Shown piece after piece: positions 1 through 5,344 of a stretch of DNA of 5,344 nt. This DNA is from a virus (Duplodnaviria; Heunggongvirae; Uroviricota; Caudoviricetes). How positions within the stretch are numbered: position 1 is the stretch's first letter; each line of letters begins with the position of its first letter. The notes beneath the pieces were generated by a model, which saw nothing but the letters and a program-made list of their open reading frames with translations, ran no database searches and was not told where the DNA came from. The translations under genes and the position numbers were made by a program. The DNA lies in IMG/VR virus record IMGVR_UViG_2541047812_000002, positions 1 to 5,344 of that record, one strand, 5' to 3'.

Positions 1-73
1 TTTAACCAGGGCGGGTATCGCTCGGTTTCGGGTATAACCTTAGGAAATTTTTTCCCACCTGTAAAGCACTTTT

Positions 74-105
74 TATATAAATCTATAATTATATATTTAT
101 AGATT
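74..105. repeat. Iteron cluster A: four tandem 8-bp AT-rich units (TATATAAA TCTATAAT TATATATT TATAGATT), related to the clusters flanking the par genes
   Basis: Read directly from sequence. 8-bp periodicity with units starting TATA/TCTA. Contains TTATATAAATCTATA (74-88), the exact reverse complement of TATAGATTTATATAA found in clusters B and D. Outer arms AAATCTATAA / TTATAGATTT form a 10-bp inverted repeat. Confidence 0.6.
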
Positions 106-156
106 TTCGATGTTCCCGATATCTACACACCATCAAAACAGCTCAAAATGACACTT

Positions 157-534
157 TTACTCTCTTCGCTTTTTCAAATAGTCGACAACATACGCCCTGG
201 CTTTTGCCAGCTTCCGGCGATACTGTCTGAGACTAAGAGAAAGGGCGTGGGCTTTATCAATATGCGGTGCATTTATGTCGAGGCCCCGAATCTCCCACGC
301 CCCGTATTCAATTCGGACAACCAGCGCCGCAGTCTCATCAACTACCGTGAGGGCCGTCACCGCTCCCTCGATACTGGTTTCCAGTGAGTCATTTGGTGCG
401 CCGCCCCCTCCGGTAAACTGGCAGCGCGTAACCATCATCATTTCTAACATCGACGCGAAACCGCTACGGGCGTTGCAGCCATTGCGCACCCACAGCGCCC
501 ATAGCTCAAACAAGCTATCCAGATCGCGTCTCAC
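157..534 (-). CDS. Putative phage antitermination protein Q-like (short QuuD-type family)
   Basis: 125-aa ORF, last gene of the coupled minus-strand operon (3-nt gap to the upstream gene). N-terminal LFELWALWVRNG motif and helix-rich C-terminus (LSLSLRQYRRKLAKARAYVVDYL) resemble my recollection of the Phage_antitermQ family. Position at the distal end of a cro-led operon fits. Assigned from memory, not a search. Confidence 0.4.
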   Translation of the reverse strand: MRRDLDSLFELWALWVRNGCNARSGFASMLEMMMVTRCQFTGGGGAPNDSLETSIEGAVTALTVVDETAALVVRIEYGAWEIRGLDINAPHIDKAHALSLSLRQYRRKLAKARAYVVDYLKKRRE

Positions 535-537
535 TGT

Positions 538-870
538 TCAGATCTCCCGTATCGTGACGGGATAAAGCGCCTCTACCTGCTTTTTCTTCATGATGTAGAC
601 GTCTGTTCGCACACCTTTAGTGTCGACACAATCAATCGTCCCATCGTCATAAAACACCATGAAATCAAGTTTATAAACGACACCACCTGGCAGATGAAAA
701 GGCACCTGCATAAGAAACGTCACAACGCGGCCAGCTTTTCTCAGTAGCTTCAGTTCGCAGTAGTAATCAGCCTCTTTTTTGCTATCAAAAGAGATATCAT
801 CGACAACAGTTTTTTTATTGCCGTATTTGCTTTTCCTGGTCGCTGGTTTGCGAAAGCCGGTATATCTCAT
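538..870 (-). CDS. DUF1064-family phage protein (putative nuclease/resolvase-like)
   Basis: 110-aa translation contains KYGNKKTVVDDISFDSKKEADYYCELKLLRKAG ... YKLDFMVFYDDGTIDCVDTKGVRTDVYIMKKK ... IREI, matching the conserved pattern I recall for DUF1064 proteins (KYGNKKT..DG..FDSKKEA..Y.EL.LL.KAG ... DF.Y ... DVKG..T..Y..KKK). Start overlaps the upstream gene stop by 4 nt (ATGA). Confidence 0.65.
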   Translation of the reverse strand: MRYTGFRKPATRKSKYGNKKTVVDDISFDSKKEADYYCELKLLRKAGRVVTFLMQVPFHLPGGVVYKLDFMVFYDDGTIDCVDTKGVRTDVYIMKKKQVEALYPVTIREI

Positions 871-1271
871 TTGGTATCCCCTGGTACTTCACCAAGACTA
901 AGATCAAACCCAATTTCGTCTTTAACTGACTGCGGCAACAGCTCCCACGTCTGCGCACACAAAAATTCATCGGTGCCATAACGCTCAACAAAGCGAGCAC
1001 AATTACTCAGGGGAGGGTGACGAACGGCAATATGCGGAGGCACGCGCCCACCACCAGGCACAACACCGCGATGATGTGGTGCGCACAACCCAAAGCTATG
1101 GAAGTGGCAATTCTCATCAACGCTGCCGTAATCAGGATCGTGATGTAGCTCCGTCCACAGCTCTGGATTCTCAATTTCACGGCCATCAATAATGCAAGCT
1201 ATGCAACCCACGTGAGTGAGCACCGCTTGTATATAAAGTTTCTCTTTCTTCGTTGGTGTACGTCCGTTCAT
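867..1271 (-). CDS. Cys/His-rich hypothetical protein, possible Zn-binding phage nuclease-like protein
   Basis: 134-aa ORF in the coupled operon. Contains CIAC, HHD, CHFHSFGLC and HH clusters suggestive of metal binding. AAGGGG Shine-Dalgarno about 5 nt upstream of the ATG. Family not confidently recognised. Confidence 0.5.
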   Translation of the reverse strand: MNGRTPTKKEKLYIQAVLTHVGCIACIIDGREIENPELWTELHHDPDYGSVDENCHFHSFGLCAPHHRGVVPGGGRVPPHIAVRHPPLSNCARFVERYGTDEFLCAQTWELLPQSVKDEIGFDLSLGEVPGDTK

Positions 1272-1504
1272 CAGCGCCCCTTACCATTGATAAAGAGGTT
1301 GAACTCGTTGATTAACTGGACATACATGCTTCTGGCCGCGTAGTTCTTTGCCAGCTCTTTACGGGATGAGATCCCGCAAAACTCACGCAGAATCACAGAG
1401 GCCTCAGAACTGTTTGAAACGTTCTTCCCTGTTTTACTGGTCAGAAAGCGCCAGAATTGGGGATTCTGGCAATGCATCGCAGCACCGCGAACATAACTAC
1501 TCAT
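1271..1504 (-). CDS. Hypothetical small protein (77 aa)
   Basis: ORF in the coupled operon: its start overlaps the upstream stop (ATGA) and its stop shares one nucleotide with the downstream start (TGATG). No recognisable motif. Confidence 0.4.
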   Translation of the reverse strand: MSSYVRGAAMHCQNPQFWRFLTSKTGKNVSNSSEASVILREFCGISSRKELAKNYAARSMYVQLINEFNLFINGKGR

Positions 1505-2016
1505 TGATGGCCCCCGTCATTTCTGGTGCTTTTCACCGTGCGGCTTCTTAAAAACCTGCCATCACGAACAACAGACACTTCTCGTTTACCCAACCTCATT
1601 TCACGGCGGTAACATTCAGAAAATGCCTCGTCCGGCATCATATAAATGCGACGCTTCGCCTCCGTATCCAGAAGGGAACGGCTTGGGGTTACATATAAAA
1701 ACGACTCATCAATAGGGACAAAACCACGAGCAAGAATTGCTGGCAGAATGCCAGGAAGAACGCAGAAAACAGCTCCACGATGCAGCAACATCAGGTACTC
1801 CATGACCTCCGTTATCCCCGTGACTACTGTTACGGTGTCACGTCTGTTACGGCTGGCAACCAGTCGCTGCACACGTCCAATTTTCTGATCTACAGATAGA
1901 TGTTTGCTATCGTTATCAATATGATCGATAGCAAATCCTTTAATCGTTTGATCAAGGTAGTGCACCACCTTCGATTGAATCTGGTGATTATCACCAAAGA
2001 AGGCCAGAATCATCAT
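1501..2016 (-). CDS. Hypothetical protein (171 aa), second gene of the early operon
   Basis: Long ORF whose ATG overlaps the stop of the cro-like gene (ATGATGA). GGGAGG and GAGGA Shine-Dalgarno candidates upstream. No family recognised from the sequence alone. Confidence 0.55.
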   Translation of the reverse strand: MMILAFFGDNHQIQSKVVHYLDQTIKGFAIDHIDNDSKHLSVDQKIGRVQRLVASRNRRDTVTVVTGITEVMEYLMLLHRGAVFCVLPGILPAILARGFVPIDESFLYVTPSRSLLDTEAKRRIYMMPDEAFSECYRREMRLGKREVSVVRDGRFLRSRTVKSTRNDGGHQ

Positions 2017-2507
2017 TCCTCAAGCCTCCCAAGTGCTGAACGCCGGGCGTTGCTAATCTCCTTATGAATCAGCTCGATATCGCTGGAATCTTTATTCTTA
2101 AGCTCCAGCACGGTAATCGCATCACGAACCTCTGAAACGGTTACGTGTGAGTGTTTCCAGCGAGCAATGAATCGCGGACCGCGTAGATTGCAACGCTCCG
2201 CAGGCATCCCCAACTCAGAGAAAACCGCTTTCAGCCTTGATAAGCAGTTAACAGGGAGATTCCCTTTGATCTTGTTCTGCCGAACCGATGTGCCATCGCT
2301 ACGCTGGCGCTGACGTTCGGCAAAATCTGCCGCCCATTGCTGGACGTTAATCCGGCCTTCCGAATACGCCACCAGCAGCGTCAGGTTATCCGCACGAGGG
2401 AATCTCTCGAAGCGATACCAGGCACCAATCAGTGATGACGTAAAGCCAAACTTTCTGGCAACACCAATTTGGCCTCCATTTTCGTCAACCCACTCCTGAA
2501 AGGTCAT
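2013..2507 (-). CDS. Cro/CII-like HTH DNA-binding protein with about 100-aa C-terminal extension
   Basis: 164-aa ORF transcribed divergently from the repressor gene. N-terminus (QIGVARKFGFTSSLIGAWYRF) has the pattern of Cro/YdaS-type HTH proteins. GGAG Shine-Dalgarno 8 nt upstream of the ATG. Promoter and operators lie immediately upstream. Confidence 0.55.
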   Translation of the reverse strand: MTFQEWVDENGGQIGVARKFGFTSSLIGAWYRFERFPRADNLTLLVAYSEGRINVQQWAADFAERQRQRSDGTSVRQNKIKGNLPVNCLSRLKAVFSELGMPAERCNLRGPRFIARWKHSHVTVSEVRDAITVLELKNKDSSDIELIHKEISNARRSALGRLEE

Positions 2508-2526
2508 TTAACGAACTCCAGTTAAA

Positions 2527-2541
2527 ACCACGATATGTGGT
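2527..2541. promoter_or_regulatory. Operator-like palindrome O1 (ACCAC-GATAT-GTGGT)
   Basis: Perfect 5-bp inverted arms ACCAC/GTGGT with a 5-bp spacer. Lies just downstream of the -10 of the putative cro-like promoter, on the minus strand. Confidence 0.5.
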
Positions 2542-2570
2542 ATTAAAACCACATATCGTGAGTTTTTCAA
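2542..2570 (-). promoter_or_regulatory. Putative sigma70 promoter of the cro-like/early operon
   Basis: On the minus strand: -35 TTGAAA (2565-2570), 17-bp spacer, -10 TTTAAT (2542-2547). A T10 tract (A10 on the plus strand, 2576-2585) lies just upstream and could act as a UP element. Operator O2 fills the spacer. Confidence 0.45.
2548..2562. promoter_or_regulatory. Operator-like palindrome O2 (ACCAC-ATATC-GTGAG)
   Basis: Same ACCAC-N5-GTG(G) architecture as O1, with one imperfect arm. Its core is the reverse complement of the O1 core. Occupies 15 of the 17 spacer positions between the -35 and -10 of the putative cro-like promoter. Confidence 0.5.
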
Positions 2571-2628
2571 TGGGCAAAAAAAAAATAACCTTCTATTTGT
2601 GGTCCACCTCTCGTCTTACCATGTGAAA

Positions 2629-2643
2629 ACCACTAAATGTGGT
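2629..2643. promoter_or_regulatory. Operator-like palindrome O3 (ACCAC-TAAAT-GTGGT)
   Basis: Third copy of ACCAC-N5-GTGGT. Sits 5 bp upstream of a TATAAA -10-like hexamer (2648-2653, with TG at 2646-2647) about 28 bp ahead of the repressor ATG. Confidence 0.45.
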
Positions 2644-2680
2644 AATGTATAAATAACCCACCATTCACGATTGATGAGAC

Positions 2681-3337
2681 ATGAAAAGCAACGACGAGAA
2701 CATCAAGAAAGAAATAGGTCTGCGCATTCAGACTCTACGGAAACAATCCGGCATGACTGCCGGAGATCTCCAGCAAGTCACTGGAATAGGCTTAAGCACC
2801 TTGCAGAACTATGAGGCCGGATTAAGACAACCATCTATACCTGCCATCAAGAAAATCGCGCACGCCCTGAAAGCATCAGCGCCTTATATCGCGTGCTTAA
2901 CAGATAACCCGTTCCCACCCCAGAATACTAACGCTCCTGTTATTCCTGGGCTTGTAGCTATAAAAAATGACATAGCATCGCACGCCGGAGAAAAGCCAGT
3001 GCTGGCGATAGAACAGGAGATTCTACGAAGCAAGAACATCAACCCATCGTCTCTGTCAGTTCTCCAGAGCAACGATGAGTTAATGTCACCAACAATATCC
3101 CCTGGCTCCCAAGTCCTGATTGATACAGACGATACAGAGATTCATGAGGGGATCTATGCCCTTGAAGACAGAAATGGCCTGGTTGTTTTGAGGCACTGTA
3201 GAGTCATACCGGGTGACAATGCTGTTATGCTGTCAACCGAAAGGGATGCTGAAATGAACACTAAGCATCTGAATAACGAGGAATTTAAGCGTTATAAAGT
3301 TCTGGGCCGCGTAGTTAGTGTTGTCAACTGGTTATGA
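2681..3337 (+). CDS. CI-like transcriptional repressor: N-terminal XRE-type HTH plus C-terminal S24 (LexA/CI)-like domain, apparently catalytically degenerate
   Basis: 218-aa ORF. Residues about 11-70 have the classic XRE HTH pattern (GMTAGDLQQVTGIGLSTLQNYEAGLRQPSIPAIKKIAHAL). The C-terminal 90 aa align to the S24 fold (LMSPTISPGSQVLIDTD ... YKVLGRVVSV), but the GDSM serine position reads DELM and the conserved lysine position is R/H. Confidence 0.7.
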   Translation: MKSNDENIKKEIGLRIQTLRKQSGMTAGDLQQVTGIGLSTLQNYEAGLRQPSIPAIKKIAHALKASAPYIACLTDNPFPPQNTNAPVIPGLVAIKNDIASHAGEKPVLAIEQEILRSKNINPSSLSVLQSNDELMSPTISPGSQVLIDTDDTEIHEGIYALEDRNGLVVLRHCRVIPGDNAVMLSTERDAEMNTKHLNNEEFKRYKVLGRVVSVVNWL

Positions 3338-3379
3338 TACACAGCACGGCGAAAGCCGTGCATTTCTACGCTCAAAAAA

Positions 3380-3394
3380 ACCACATTTTGTGGT
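3380..3394. promoter_or_regulatory. Operator-like palindrome O4 (ACCAC-ATTTT-GTGGT)
   Basis: Fourth copy of the motif, within the longer palindrome AAAACCACATTTTGTGGTTTT, between the repressor stop and the next gene. A TTGACA hexamer follows at 3395-3400, and AGAGG (3419-3423) precedes the ATG at 3430. Confidence 0.45.
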
Positions 3395-3429
3395 TTTGAC
3401 AACATGTGAAAGTATAAAAGAGGCTACGC

Positions 3430-3804
3430 ATGGAATTACATACAGCCAATAAAAACGAAACTCTGATCACTGCTGGAATCGAAATCCAAGCGTTGAACAT
3501 AGCGATTGAGTGTATGTTATGCCAAATCATTGATAATGAGAAAGATATCGACTGGATATCATCTACCCTTCATCTTGCTTACGAGCAAAAAGCCTGCCTC
3601 AAAACAGCCTTACAATACGATGTGCCTTCTGTATCAAAGCTGTGCCAGTCATTGATGGCATATAACAGAGCTATCATTTCTGTATGCCTCATGATTCTCG
3701 ATGAGAATACCCCTCTTAGCGACCGCTCAGAAGCAGCTCTAACCCTCTCACGTAAACAGCGACAGCTAGCAAATCAACTGATATCAACGATAGCTGACCT
3801 CTGA
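3430..3804 (+). CDS. Hypothetical protein (124 aa) downstream of the repressor gene
   Basis: ORF with a good Shine-Dalgarno (AAGAGG, 6-nt spacing) and a stem-loop terminator immediately after its stop. Predicted mostly helical. No family recognised. Confidence 0.5.
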   Translation: MELHTANKNETLITAGIEIQALNIAIECMLCQIIDNEKDIDWISSTLHLAYEQKACLKTALQYDVPSVSKLCQSLMAYNRAIISVCLMILDENTPLSDRSEAALTLSRKQRQLANQLISTIADL

Positions 3805-3808
3805 CTGC

Positions 3809-3828
3809 AAGCGGGCTAACGCCCGCTT
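3809..3828 (+). terminator. Putative intrinsic terminator (stem AAGCGGGC / GCCCGCTT, loop TAAC)
   Basis: Perfect 8-bp GC-rich stem with a 4-nt loop starting 5 nt after the stop at 3804. Followed by AT-rich sequence, though not a clean T-run. Confidence 0.45.
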
Positions 3829-3859
3829 ATATGATTATAGATTTATATAATTATATAAA
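3828..3859. repeat. Iteron cluster B: four tandem 8-bp units (TATATGAT TATAGATT TATATAAT TATATAAA)
   Basis: Read directly from sequence. The 23-mer TATAGATTTATATAATTATATAA (3836-3858) recurs with one mismatch in cluster C. Confidence 0.6.
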
Positions 3860-3881
3860 ACGCTTTTCATCCGCCAAAAAG

Positions 3882-3910
3882 TTGGTTATGCTTACCTCGT
3901 TCTATAAATA
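3882..3910 (+). promoter_or_regulatory. Putative par operon promoter overlapping iteron cluster C
   Basis: -35-like TTGGTT (3882-3887) and a -10-like TATAAA/TAAATA within 3903-3910 at 15-17 bp spacing, between iteron clusters B and C, about 45 bp upstream of the parA-like start. Weak consensus match; inference only. Confidence 0.3.
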
Positions 3911-3932
3911 TAGATTTATAGAATTATATAAC
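3901..3932. repeat. Iteron cluster C: tandem 8-bp units (TCTATAAA TATAGATT TATAGAAT TATATAAC)
   Basis: Read directly from sequence. 3909-3931 (TATAGATTTATAGAATTATATAA) differs from the cluster B 23-mer at one position. Ends 23 bp before the parA-like start. Confidence 0.6.
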
Positions 3933-3954
3933 CAAACACATGGAGTCTCGACAA

Positions 3955-4608
3955 ATGACTATCTCTGTAGGTATTTTCAACGGAAAAGGCGGCGTAACCA
4001 AATCAACAATTGCCCGTGCTTTAGCAGTTGCTTATGCAAAGGCTGGCTGGAATGTATGCCTGATCGATATGGATGTGCTTAACGGAACGGTAACGCGTTG
4101 GGTACAACGCAGAATGGCCAACAATATCGAACCAGCAATCGCGGCGCAGCCGTGCGGCACACCATCACAAGTCCAGAAAATCATCGAATCAGAAGTATAC
4201 GACCTGGTTATCGTCGATGGCGGTGCCTACGCATCTGAATCAGTACCGAAGCTCTCTGAATTTCTGGATATGGTTATTTTGCCAACCAGATTCTCTACCG
4301 ATGACCTGGAAACCACCGTTAACACAGCTCACGGCATCGTTAAAAAGGGTGTACCAATCAAGAAAATTTGCATGGTGTTTTCCGGCGCGGCTGAAAACGA
4401 AGCTGACTATATTGAAGCCCAAGAGTACCTGGCTAATACGCCATACTTTGTTGTCGATAAGTACATTCCCCACAAGCCAGCTCTGAGCAAAGCTCAGGAT
4501 AAGGGCTTAAGCCTTATTGAGTGCTCATACGTTGCGCCACGCAAAAAGGCAGACGATGTTATCCAGGGGATTATCAATCAGCTTGAGGCTCTGACTACTG
4601 CCGCGTAA
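3955..4608 (+). CDS. parA: ParA/ParF-family partition ATPase (small, type Ib; deviant Walker A)
   Basis: N-terminus MTISVGIFNGKGGVTKSTIARALAVAYAKAGWNVCLIDMD carries the deviant Walker A motif KGGxxK[ST] typical of ParA/MinD ATPases. About 217 aa, the size of ParF-type proteins. I prefer the ATG at 3955 (GGAG 9 nt upstream) over the track's ATG at 3940, which has no Shine-Dalgarno. Confidence 0.85.
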   Translation: MTISVGIFNGKGGVTKSTIARALAVAYAKAGWNVCLIDMDVLNGTVTRWVQRRMANNIEPAIAAQPCGTPSQVQKIIESEVYDLVIVDGGAYASESVPKLSEFLDMVILPTRFSTDDLETTVNTAHGIVKKGVPIKKICMVFSGAAENEADYIEAQEYLANTPYFVVDKYIPHKPALSKAQDKGLSLIECSYVAPRKKADDVIQGIINQLEALTTAA

Positions 4609-4640
4609 TATATAATTATAGTTTTATAGATTTATATAAA
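4609..4640. repeat. Iteron cluster D: four tandem 8-bp units (TATATAAT TATAGTTT TATAGATT TATATAAA) filling the parA-parG spacer
   Basis: Read directly from sequence. Begins immediately after the parA-like stop (4606-4608) and ends 11 bp before the parG-like ATG. Shares TATAGATTTATATAA with cluster B. Confidence 0.6.
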
Positions 4641-4651
4641 AGGGGATACAC

Positions 4652-4900
4652 ATGGCCGCACCATCAAAACCACCGAAAAAGAACAGCAAAGGCGTACCGC
4701 CATCAATCGAACAACCGCAGGTTTTCGACCCGACTGAAACGCCGACCAGAACCAAATCAGGTGGGGCACAAATGGCGTTTAACGTCGACCCTGAATTTAA
4801 ACGCGAGTACAAAACGTTCGCCAGCTCAATGGATATGTCATTGAAAGAAGTGCTGACAAAATCTTTTGAGTTACTCAAGGCTCAATACAACCAGAAGTAA
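4652..4900 (+). CDS. ParG-like ribbon-helix-helix centromere-binding protein (82 aa)
   Basis: Immediately downstream of the ParA-like gene, with an AAGGGG Shine-Dalgarno. C-terminal 40 aa (MAFNVDPEFKREYKTFASSMDMSLKEVLTKSFELLKAQY) fits a beta-strand/helix/helix RHH pattern similar to TP228 ParG as I recall it. N-terminal 40 aa is a Pro/Lys-rich, probably disordered tail. Confidence 0.6.
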   Translation: MAAPSKPPKKNSKGVPPSIEQPQVFDPTETPTRTKSGGAQMAFNVDPEFKREYKTFASSMDMSLKEVLTKSFELLKAQYNQK

Positions 4901-4962
4901 GAGAAGGTGACGGCCTCCAGCGCCAACTGTTGGCCGTCGCGACACAACAAGGGGAATTTGTT

Positions 4963-5112
4963 ATGTCCGAGCAACAATATACACGGTTACTGAAAACTCG
5001 TCTAACCGACCTCAAACGGCTGCAAGCTGGTTGCTTATTTGCCCTGCTATCTACCAGGCCAGAATGGGTACGTGAAGCAGTTCTGAAAGGTTTAATGCGC
5101 TCCAGCGTTTAA
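4963..5112 (+). CDS. Hypothetical small protein (49 aa from the ATG at 4963; the track ORF starts at 4930)
   Basis: AAGGGGA Shine-Dalgarno 7 nt upstream of the ATG at 4963. Stop codon TAA (5110-5112) lies 9 bp before the IS terminal repeat. No motif recognised. Confidence 0.3.
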   Translation: MSEQQYTRLLKTRLTDLKRLQAGCLFALLSTRPEWVREAVLKGLMRSSV

Positions 5113-5120
5113 ATTCAACC

Positions 5121-5344
5121 GGCTTTGTTGAATAAATCGAACTTTTGCTGAGTTGAAGGATCAGATCACGCATCCTCCCGACAACACAGACCATTCCGTG
5201 GCAAAGCAAAAGTTCAGAATCACCAACTGGTCCACCTACAACAAAGCTCTCATCAACCGTGGCTCCCTCACTTTCTGGCTGGATGATGAAGCGATTCAGG
5301 CCTGGTATGAGTCGGCAACGCCTTCATCACGAGGAAGGCCCCAG
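5121..5344 (+). mobile_element. IS903-group insertion sequence (IS5 family), left end; partial, continues past the window
   Basis: 5121-5138 GGCTTTGTTGAATAAATC matches the 18-bp terminal inverted repeat of IS903 as I recall it. The following 200 bp match the known IS903 left end with a few substitutions. Confidence 0.85.
5198..5344 (+). CDS. tnp: IS903-family (IS5 family) transposase, N-terminal 49 codons (partial; GTG start; runs off the window)
   Basis: Translation from GTG 5198: VAKQKFRITNWSTYNKALINRGSLTFWLDDEAIQAWYESATPSSRGRPQ, near-identical to the IS903 transposase N-terminus as I remember it (MAKQKFKITNWSTYNKALINRGSLTFWLDDEAIQAWYESATPSSRGRPQ). Absent from the ORF track because it lacks an ATG and is truncated by the window edge. 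Confidence 0.8.
   Translation, partial: MAKQKFRITNWSTYNKALINRGSLTFWLDDEAIQAWYESATPSSRGRPQ

Follow-up and report, generated by a model that had tools for sequence, protein, structure and literature searches.

The 5,344-nucleotide stretch of DNA analysed here, hereafter the window (IMG/VR virus record IMGVR_UViG_2541047812_000002, positions 1 to 5,344), carries a gene for a 218-residue CI-like repressor on the plus strand and, facing away from it, an early operon on the minus strand. The 173-bp intergenic region that separates the two (2508-2680) and the DNA just behind the repressor gene contain palindromes of the form ACCAC-N5-GTGGT (ACCACNNNNNGTGGT). A sequence-only reading had proposed four copies of this palindrome, three in the divergent region and one immediately past the repressor gene, as a candidate operator set for the CI-like protein. 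Their placement is as described: sites O1, O2 and O3 lie within the intergenic region and O4 lies just beyond the gene (Table 1).

Positions 1-5120 of the window are 98.6-100% identical to non-mobilizable plasmids of 47-51 kb from E. coli, E. fergusonii, E. albertii and Klebsiella aerogenes, and 98.8% identical to three Yersinia pestis myophages (vB_YpM_39/41/44). The top plasmid match, pP136-7 (NZ_CP080230.1, locus L001), combines genes for a contractile tail, capsid, terminase and lysis with repA, parA and a toxin-antitoxin pair, which identifies it as a phage-plasmid. The element was found in 58 PLSDB plasmids, and the reference strain E. coli ATCC 25922 has a copy. The plasmid matches and the gene content agree that the window is the immunity region of a phage-plasmid of the "p-p47 family", defined in a 2026 preprint by Svedholm et al. 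(bioRxiv 10.64898/2026.08.19.745698). Members of this family are 42-56 kb long, come mostly from E. coli, have myovirus-type genes and an IncFII-like repA under antisense control, and are without a typeable replicon or relaxase (bioRxiv 10.64898/2026.08.19.745698). CP032086.1 (94,204 bp), which is named as a member in the same preprint, has an immunity region with 97.4% identity to the window.

Table 1. Features of the immunity region (window coordinates)
Feature	Position	Strand	Description
orf164	2013..2507	-	first gene of the divergent early operon, 164 residues; "cro-like" by position only
O1	2527..2541	none	ACCACGATATGTGGT; perfect palindrome, operator candidate; covers the predicted early start (~2535)
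candidate early (lytic) promoter	2542..2570	-	-35 TTGAAA (2570-2565), 17-nt spacer, -10 TTTAAT (2547-2542)
O2	2548..2562	none	ACCACATATCGTGAG; imperfect, with GTGAG as its right arm (relatives have GTGGG); occupies the spacer of the candidate early promoter
Ox	2589..2603	none	CCTTCTATTTGTGGT; possible weak fifth site, one consensus half-site GTGGT and a degenerate partner
candidate repressor promoter	2621..2653	+	weak -35 ATGTGA (2621-2626); -10 TAATGT (2643-2648) or TATAAA (2648-2653)
O3	2629..2643	none	ACCACTAAATGTGGT; perfect site within the core of the repressor gene's candidate promoter
immunity repressor gene	2681..3337	+	218 residues; N-terminal HTH_3 and divergent S24-like C-terminal domain without Ser/Lys dyad
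likely repressor-gene terminator	3344..3361	+	GC-rich hairpin GCACGGC-GAAA-GCCGTGC, then a T-rich tail
O4	3380..3394	none	ACCACATTTTGTGGT; flanked by A/T-tracts; starts 43 nt past the repressor stop, just beyond the terminator hairpin

Three of the copies (O1, O3 and O4) match the palindrome exactly, where 0.01 would be expected by chance, and none of 200 shuffled versions of the window had three or more exact matches. O2 deviates from it by two mismatches, both in the right arm, so the proposed number of four holds only if this imperfect copy is included. An A-tract is present on the left side of all four sites (AAAACCAC). The centres of O1 (2534) and O2 (2555) are 21 bp apart, i.e. two helical turns, those of O2 and O3 (2636) are 81 bp apart, and O3 and O4 are separated by 751 bp. 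The motif is enriched outside the window as well: the whole 48-kb plasmid has six CCAC-N5-GTGG sites versus about 0.4 expected.

A further block, Ox (centre 2596), lies between O2 and O3, and when it is included the successive spacings become 21, 41 and 40 bp. Its minus strand reads ACCAC-AAATA-GAAGG, a form seen in distant Serratia-type relatives, and the block (A/C)CCT(T/C)CTnTTT(T/C)GTGGT is almost invariant in the alignment of relatives. Its likeness to the asymmetric ACYAC-N5-G sites of distant groups suggests that Ox is a fifth, weak site that would bind the same protein. We also note a short palindrome of the opposite arrangement (GTGGTCCAC, 2599-2607) that overlaps the conserved GTGGT half-site of Ox. 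It is limited to some Escherichia-lineage copies, variation within the lineage affecting positions 2605 and 2607; in the relatives the sequence is GTGGTTGAT or GTGGTTATT.

The relatives of the locus come from Salmonella, Citrobacter, Klebsiella aerogenes and Yokenella, their repressors are 61-67% identical, and the alignment comprises nine distinct sequences. (A first profile scan of genome contigs with the repressor alignment found no relative.) All four sites are at the same positions in every relative locus and the 6-bp gap between O1 and O2 is unchanged. Almost no further CCAC-N5-GTGG occurs in the 6.7-8.7 kb of DNA that flanks them. In the nine sequences, 31 of the 32 columns of the CCAC/GTGG core arms are invariant, versus 91 of 215 (42%) of the other intergenic columns and 3 of 20 columns of the centres (Fisher p ~7e-10 and ~9e-10, respectively). 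The seven Escherichia-lineage copies show the same tendency, with variation in 4 of 20 centre columns and in 1 of 40 arm columns, the latter belonging to the degenerate right arm of O2. There is no covariation between the arms; several separate loci have one and the same fixed arm sequence, and the centres drift. In other words, the sites are strongly conserved in a pattern that points to purifying selection on the sequence of the arms only. Fixed arms, drifting centres and the lack of covariation therefore indicate a dimeric, sequence-specific DNA-binding protein and not a hairpin, and the palindromes are real and almost certainly functional operators. This part of the original proposal is well supported.

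In more distant relatives (Serratia, Enterobacter and other groups, with repressors of ~30-37% identity) the gene order is the same and clusters of sites are found at the same places. Here, the sites are asymmetric, with ACYAC-N5-G followed by a degenerate arm, and ACCAC is among them, which supports ACCAC as the putative recognition unit. The recognition helix of these proteins begins with PR versus GL in the family of the window. A clean switch of specificity in Serratia, ACTAC-N5-GTAGT accompanied by the GL to PR change, was considered and given up: more loci showed mixed asymmetric ACYAC sites including ACCAC, and the covariation is only suggestive. A search of IMG/VR for the tandem O1-O2 pattern gave 44 contigs, 12 of which have the AT-rich layout, and all 12 encode both the repressor and orf164. 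The remaining matches are unrelated GC-rich repeats, with the exception of a 119-kb viral contig (L044, IMGVR_UViG_3300003878_000001). This contig has a tandem ACCACGATATGTGGT-6-ACCACAATGTGTGGT pair at 4911-4947 next to what appears by eye to be the end of a tRNA gene, and encodes a homologue of neither the repressor nor orf164. The pair is either a coincidence or belongs to an unrelated regulator that shares the half-site.

The 218-residue protein has the helix-turn-helix (HTH) of the LexA/lambda-CI repressors at its N terminus: residues 11-69 match the Pfam families HTH_3 (E=4.5e-11) and HTH_31 (E=2.8e-9), and AlphaFold predicts five confident helices in residues 10-50 (predicted local distance difference test score, pLDDT, ~92). 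The full length matches phrog_4, "transcriptional repressor" (E=1.8e-27), and residues 110-214 match phrog_6201, "CI-like repressor" (E=1.4e-9). The signal for the C-terminal domain is less distinct. The Pfam Peptidase_S24 match has 20 bits and is under the cut-off of 23.3; an hhalign comparison with LexA, lambda CI and UmuD sequences gave E=6.6e-4 at a probability of only 27%; and some distant relatives have a precomputed PF00717 match. The AlphaFold model is too poor for a fold search (mean pLDDT 56, C-terminal domain below 50), and in a search of PDB sequences the C-terminal domain had no match and the full repressor matched generic HTH domains only. Across the relatives that share the arms, the identity of the repressor is 91% in the HTH core (residues 12-49), 41% in the linker and 58% in the C-terminal domain; the conservation of the DNA-reading part thus parallels that of the sites.

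The catalytic residues of self-cleaving repressors do not seem to be present. In a low-confidence alignment, S119 of LexA falls on E133/L134 and K156 of LexA on H172, and none of the columns at or next to the dyad has a conserved Ser or Lys in 22 family members. Within residues 125-175 the protein has DELM where autocleaving repressors have G-x-S-M. An Ala-Gly pair occurs in the window protein (A103-G104), and its relatives have SG, -G, GS or -D, so an Ala-Gly cleavage site is not a feature of the family. The 218-residue protein is thus very probably CI-like in its architecture and not self-cleaving. The missing Ser/Lys dyad fits the report that neither mitomycin C nor ciprofloxacin induces p-p47 elements (bioRxiv 10.64898/2026.08.19.745698). 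A search of the plasmid for LexA boxes gave one match, within a structural gene, which is at the chance level. The hairpin behind the repressor gene is likely its terminator; in the relatives the stem is kept, the loop is variable and the T-run is longer.

It is probable that the palindromes are the operators of the immunity repressor of the phage-plasmid and that the adjacent CI-like protein is the one that reads them. The gene for an HTH protein with an S24-like domain is flanked by the sites on both sides, and its HTH core is conserved together with the arms, which supports the repressor as the reader. It is considerably less probable that the sites are bound mainly by some other protein, such as orf164 acting as a Cro-type lytic repressor, a 90-residue HTH_3 protein whose gene lies in another part of the plasmid, or a host factor. 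In lambda-type switches Cro shares the operators of the repressor, orf164 keeps its genomic place in the same relatives and is 71-76% conserved there, and the 90-residue HTH_3 gene is found in the E. coli and Salmonella plasmids. The Cro protein of phiKO2 binds only OR3 (PMC4997575). Against another reader stand, besides the bracketing of the CI-like gene and the HTH core being the most conserved part of the repressor, the properties of orf164, in which no DNA-binding domain is detectable. This protein belongs to phrog_7452 (function not annotated), has no Pfam or PDB sequence match and no detectable domain, and its AlphaFold model (pLDDT 56) is too poor for a fold search; the term "cro-like operon" used in the sequence-only reading is consequently justified by position and not by the protein. 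Palindromes of 15 bp fit a dimeric HTH_3 protein, we know of no host regulator with an ACCAC half-site, and a literature search for the motif gave nothing relevant.

The positions of the sites relative to the candidate promoters agree with a role of the repressor in closing them. The proposed geometry was confirmed on the sequence: O2 takes up 15 of the 17 bases of the spacer of the early promoter, the expected early start, ~7 nt past the -10 element, is within O1, and O3 adjoins a -10-like element. In every relative, TTGAAA-17-TTTAAT (or TTGATA/TTAAAT) is the minus-strand sequence at the homologous place that best resembles a sigma-70 promoter. On the plus strand, O3 overlaps one possible -10 element of the repressor promoter (TAATGT) and ends 4 nt ahead of the other (TATAAA), and (A/G)TGAAA-16-TAAnGT recurs at the homologous place in the relatives. 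With either -10 element, O3 would be situated between the -35 and -10 elements, which is a repressing rather than an activating position. These promoter assignments are predictions; an operator that fills a promoter spacer would lead one to expect repression at the early, repressor and repA promoters.

O1 and O2 of the window are reverse complements of each other, centres included (GATAT/ATATC), and form a composite 14-bp stem that is very stable (-16.4 kcal/mol, z = -7.8), as the larger inverted repeat noted previously would imply. The composite repeat itself is not conserved: the complementarity of the centres is lost in ATCC 25922 and other Escherichia copies, and among the relatives the hairpin has interior loops in L003 and folds poorly in L009. 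Adjacent palindromes pair automatically, for which reason we regard the composite repeat as a lineage-specific by-product of two neighbouring sites. The palindromes could in principle work as nucleic-acid hairpins, with O1 and O2 as a bidirectional terminator or leader attenuator and O4 as a second terminator, but this is very unlikely. In a scan, O1+O2 resembled a terminator on either strand, the pair having a stem of 13-14 bp and a T-run, and O4 is flanked by A- and T-tracts and placed after a terminator. The stability of the hairpin nevertheless hangs on the centre complementarity that is lost in L003, L009 and ATCC 25922, and the arms are invariant, not covarying, at five separate loci. 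With the centre pairing lost and the arms free of covariation, O1+O2 does not have the signature of an intrinsic terminator. Moreover, O3 alone folds weakly (-4.1 kcal/mol), the window has no Rfam family match, and if the early promoter is as predicted its transcript starts inside O1, so that the hairpin would be untranscribed. Finally, that the sites are chance repeats or a functionless relic of a local duplication, as the degenerate O2 and the promoter scores at the level of chance might suggest, is hardly credible in view of the shuffling result, the arm-only conservation across genera (p ~1e-9) and the positions kept where the repressors are only ~30% identical.

The set of putative operators extends outside the window. 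A copy of the palindrome, AAAACCACGTAACGTGGTT, lies upstream of the repA leader (40805-40819 of L001, NZ_CP080230.1). It has the form AAAACCAC-N5-GTGGTT and adjoins a -10-like TATGAT. The site is also present at L002 25010, L016 20880, L024 14713 and L017 ~25371. It is kept with a variable centre in a Yersinia phage and in two Salmonella plasmids, the latter with a repA region of only 76% identity. The Serratia plasmid L017, whose repressor is 33% identical, has a one-mismatch site, ACCACATTTCGGGGT, at the corresponding place. In L001, L002, L016 and L024 the GTGGT arm is directly followed by TATGAT or TATGAA, the same layout as at O3. RepA of the plasmid is of the IncFII_repA family. No copB-like gene was found before repA, where a DNA invertase gene is located instead, and an Rfam search of the repA leader gave sub-threshold noise only, with no match to the CopA family. 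CopA/CopT-like antisense control and copy-up mutations in it have been reported for the family (bioRxiv 10.64898/2026.08.19.745698). We propose that the immunity repressor may also damp the transcription of repA.

Several points weigh against the repressor-operator reading. HTH proteins other than the repressor are found on the plasmid, and orf164, too, may recognise these sites, which makes the assignment of sites to protein circumstantial. Repression of repA in a lysogen that replicates as a plasmid would need to be balanced and partial. The early promoter was described as near-consensus, which did not hold up: its -10 element has T for A at position 2 and was rejected by the promoter scan, and its position-weight score of 9.9 is not above the shuffled sequences (median of the best hits 9.1). 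No conserved promoter was found at O4. The S24 fold of the C-terminal domain was assigned from matches under the threshold, the 27% hhalign probability and a domain for which AlphaFold failed. Lastly, the p-p47 preprint (bioRxiv 10.64898/2026.08.19.745698), the sole paper on the family, makes no mention of a repressor, operators or palindromes, and the literature search, in which the motif arms were combined with operator, repressor and palindrome, was equally without relevant results.

If the repressor is the reader, the switch could work as follows. Dimers of the repressor would read the AAAACCAC half-sites. Bound to O1 and O2, they would cover the start and the spacer of the leftward early promoter and keep the early operon off (orf164, orf171, orf77, the Ref nuclease, DUF1064 and others). 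A dimer bound to O3, between the -35 and -10 elements of the repressor promoter, would result in negative autoregulation. O4 and the weak Ox, which have no promoter of their own, would probably help via looping or cooperativity; O4 is thus a candidate auxiliary or looping operator. At the -10-like TATGAT in front of the IncFII-type repA leader the same repressor would damp repA, so that copy number would be tied to lysogeny. Since the C-terminal domain is without the Ser/Lys dyad, release is expected to occur via an antirepressor, possibly the ORF6N/Rha protein encoded downstream, and not by RecA-stimulated self-cleavage.

The closest functional analogue is the CB repressor of N15 and phiKO2, and not the lambda repressor. 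CB acts on cro and repA as well as on its own gene, thereby controlling the copy number, and it is without a RecA cleavage site and the Ser/Lys residues (PMC4997575). As in the element described here, the phage is maintained as a plasmid, CB is its immunity repressor, and three operators lie in the divergent repressor/cro intergenic region; the lack of a RecA cleavage site and of the Ser/Lys residues is shared, and so, by prediction, is the regulation of the repressor's own gene. Sites in the intergenic region and at the repA promoter are alike by position only: the binding of CB was shown by electrophoretic mobility shift assay, and here it is predicted from sequence. The proteins show no relationship by sequence: a tblastn search of the repressor against 50,697 phage records (E<=1e-5) gave no match to N15, phiKO2 or PY54. 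The operators differ as well, CB having a 16-bp T-A-(N)10-T-A operator (PMC4997575) versus the 15-bp ACCAC-N5-GTGGT. In N15 the OL sites are between cB and the adjacent repA, whereas here repA lies at a distance of ~9 kb and has only one site, and O4, behind the repressor gene, is followed by a partition operon. The replicon described here is circular and IncFII-type with reported CopA/CopT-like antisense control, whereas those of N15 and phiKO2 are linear.

The earlier comparison with the OR region of lambda is true in a loose sense. The repressor and the early operon are arranged divergently, the repressor combines an N-terminal HTH with a C-terminal domain of the oligomerisation type, palindromic operators cover both candidate promoters, and a distal site may support looping. 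In contrast to lambda CI, the protein has no Ser/Lys dyad and no conserved Ala-Gly site, and the half-site is unrelated to that of lambda. There are no three contiguous operators as in a tripartite switch; only O1 and O2 are adjacent, the spacings being 21 and 81 bp. The position of O3 in the promoter core does not suggest an activation of the maintenance promoter of the kind known from OR2.

The site upstream of repA invites a comparison with CopB of the IncFII plasmids R1 and NR1. In both cases the promoter from which the CopT leader of an IncFII-family repA is transcribed would have a site for a plasmid-encoded repressor; unlike in R1 and NR1, there is no copB upstream of repA here, and the candidate site has the phage immunity motif. 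We infer by analogy that the immunity repressor may stand in the place of CopB. A more far-reaching version of this idea, which we put forward tentatively and consider possible but doubtful, is that in a replicon of the IncFII type, controlled by CopA/CopT, the function of CopB has passed to the immunity repressor. With a single immunity operator at the repA promoter, the prophage would then be kept at 1-3 copies, and induction would release the early operon and repA together, the plasmid initiator doubling as the engine of lytic replication.

The early operon (window positions 157-2507, minus strand) consists of orf164, orf171, orf77, a gene for a Ref-type RecA-dependent nuclease, DUF1064 and orf125. 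Neither this operon nor the annotation of the rest of pP136-7 shows a recognisable replicase, helicase or primase; lytic replication may therefore rely on the plasmid RepA. A few kilobases downstream of the repressor gene lies a gene for an ORF6N/Rha-type protein, a type that commonly serves as antirepressor. A one-mismatch site (CCCACACTATGTGGT, L001 33927, in the region 33900-34240) lies upstream of a 63-residue open reading frame (ORF) and this antirepressor-like gene; it was rejected as a core operator as it is limited to the Escherichia lineage. The ~250 nt that follow it contain several hairpins and a terminator-like element, and may be a regulatory RNA or a leader.

Further repeats are found around the partition genes. 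An AT-rich repeat of ~31-33 nt (TATAGATTTATATAATTATATA-like) occurs in direct and inverted orientation at window positions 74-106, 3828-3860, 3901-3941 and 4609-4649. The copies bracket orf124, parA and orf82, and one is 3.7 kb away, past the end of the early operon. These repeats may be partition (centromere) sites or regulatory sites of the ParA operon. A 21-nt repeat, 86% identical between its two copies, is common to the translation-initiation regions of orf124 and orf82 (TATAAAAGAGGCTACGCATGG at 3413-3433 and TATAAAAGGGGATACACATGG at 4635-4655). The remainder of the window (5121-5344) is the end of an insertion sequence of the IS903 group (IS5 family), situated directly behind a small ORF whose last position is 5112; pP136-7 lacks it. 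Its identity is 92-95% to the IS903 of P7 and HK022 and ~98% to chromosomal E. coli copies; searches of complete E. coli genomes and PLSDB plasmids did not find its exact junction.

We note that no new principle is involved, as repressor/operator switches, including the control of repA by a prophage repressor, are already known from N15 and phiKO2. Nevertheless, p-p47 phage-plasmids are common in E. coli, clinically relevant and barely studied, and the operator set gives a testable map of their lysis-lysogeny switch. A non-cleavable repressor would explain the reported lack of SOS induction. The p-p47 elements have been tied to beta-lactam heteroresistance via an increase in copy number, and one high-copy, heteroresistant mutant had a single-nucleotide polymorphism in a "potential transcriptional regulator" of the element and not in CopA/CopT (bioRxiv 10.64898/2026.08.19.745698). 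The candidate link that leads from the immunity repressor to the transcription of repA and on to copy number is of interest in this respect, and the CopB role of the repressor, if true, would explain this mutant.

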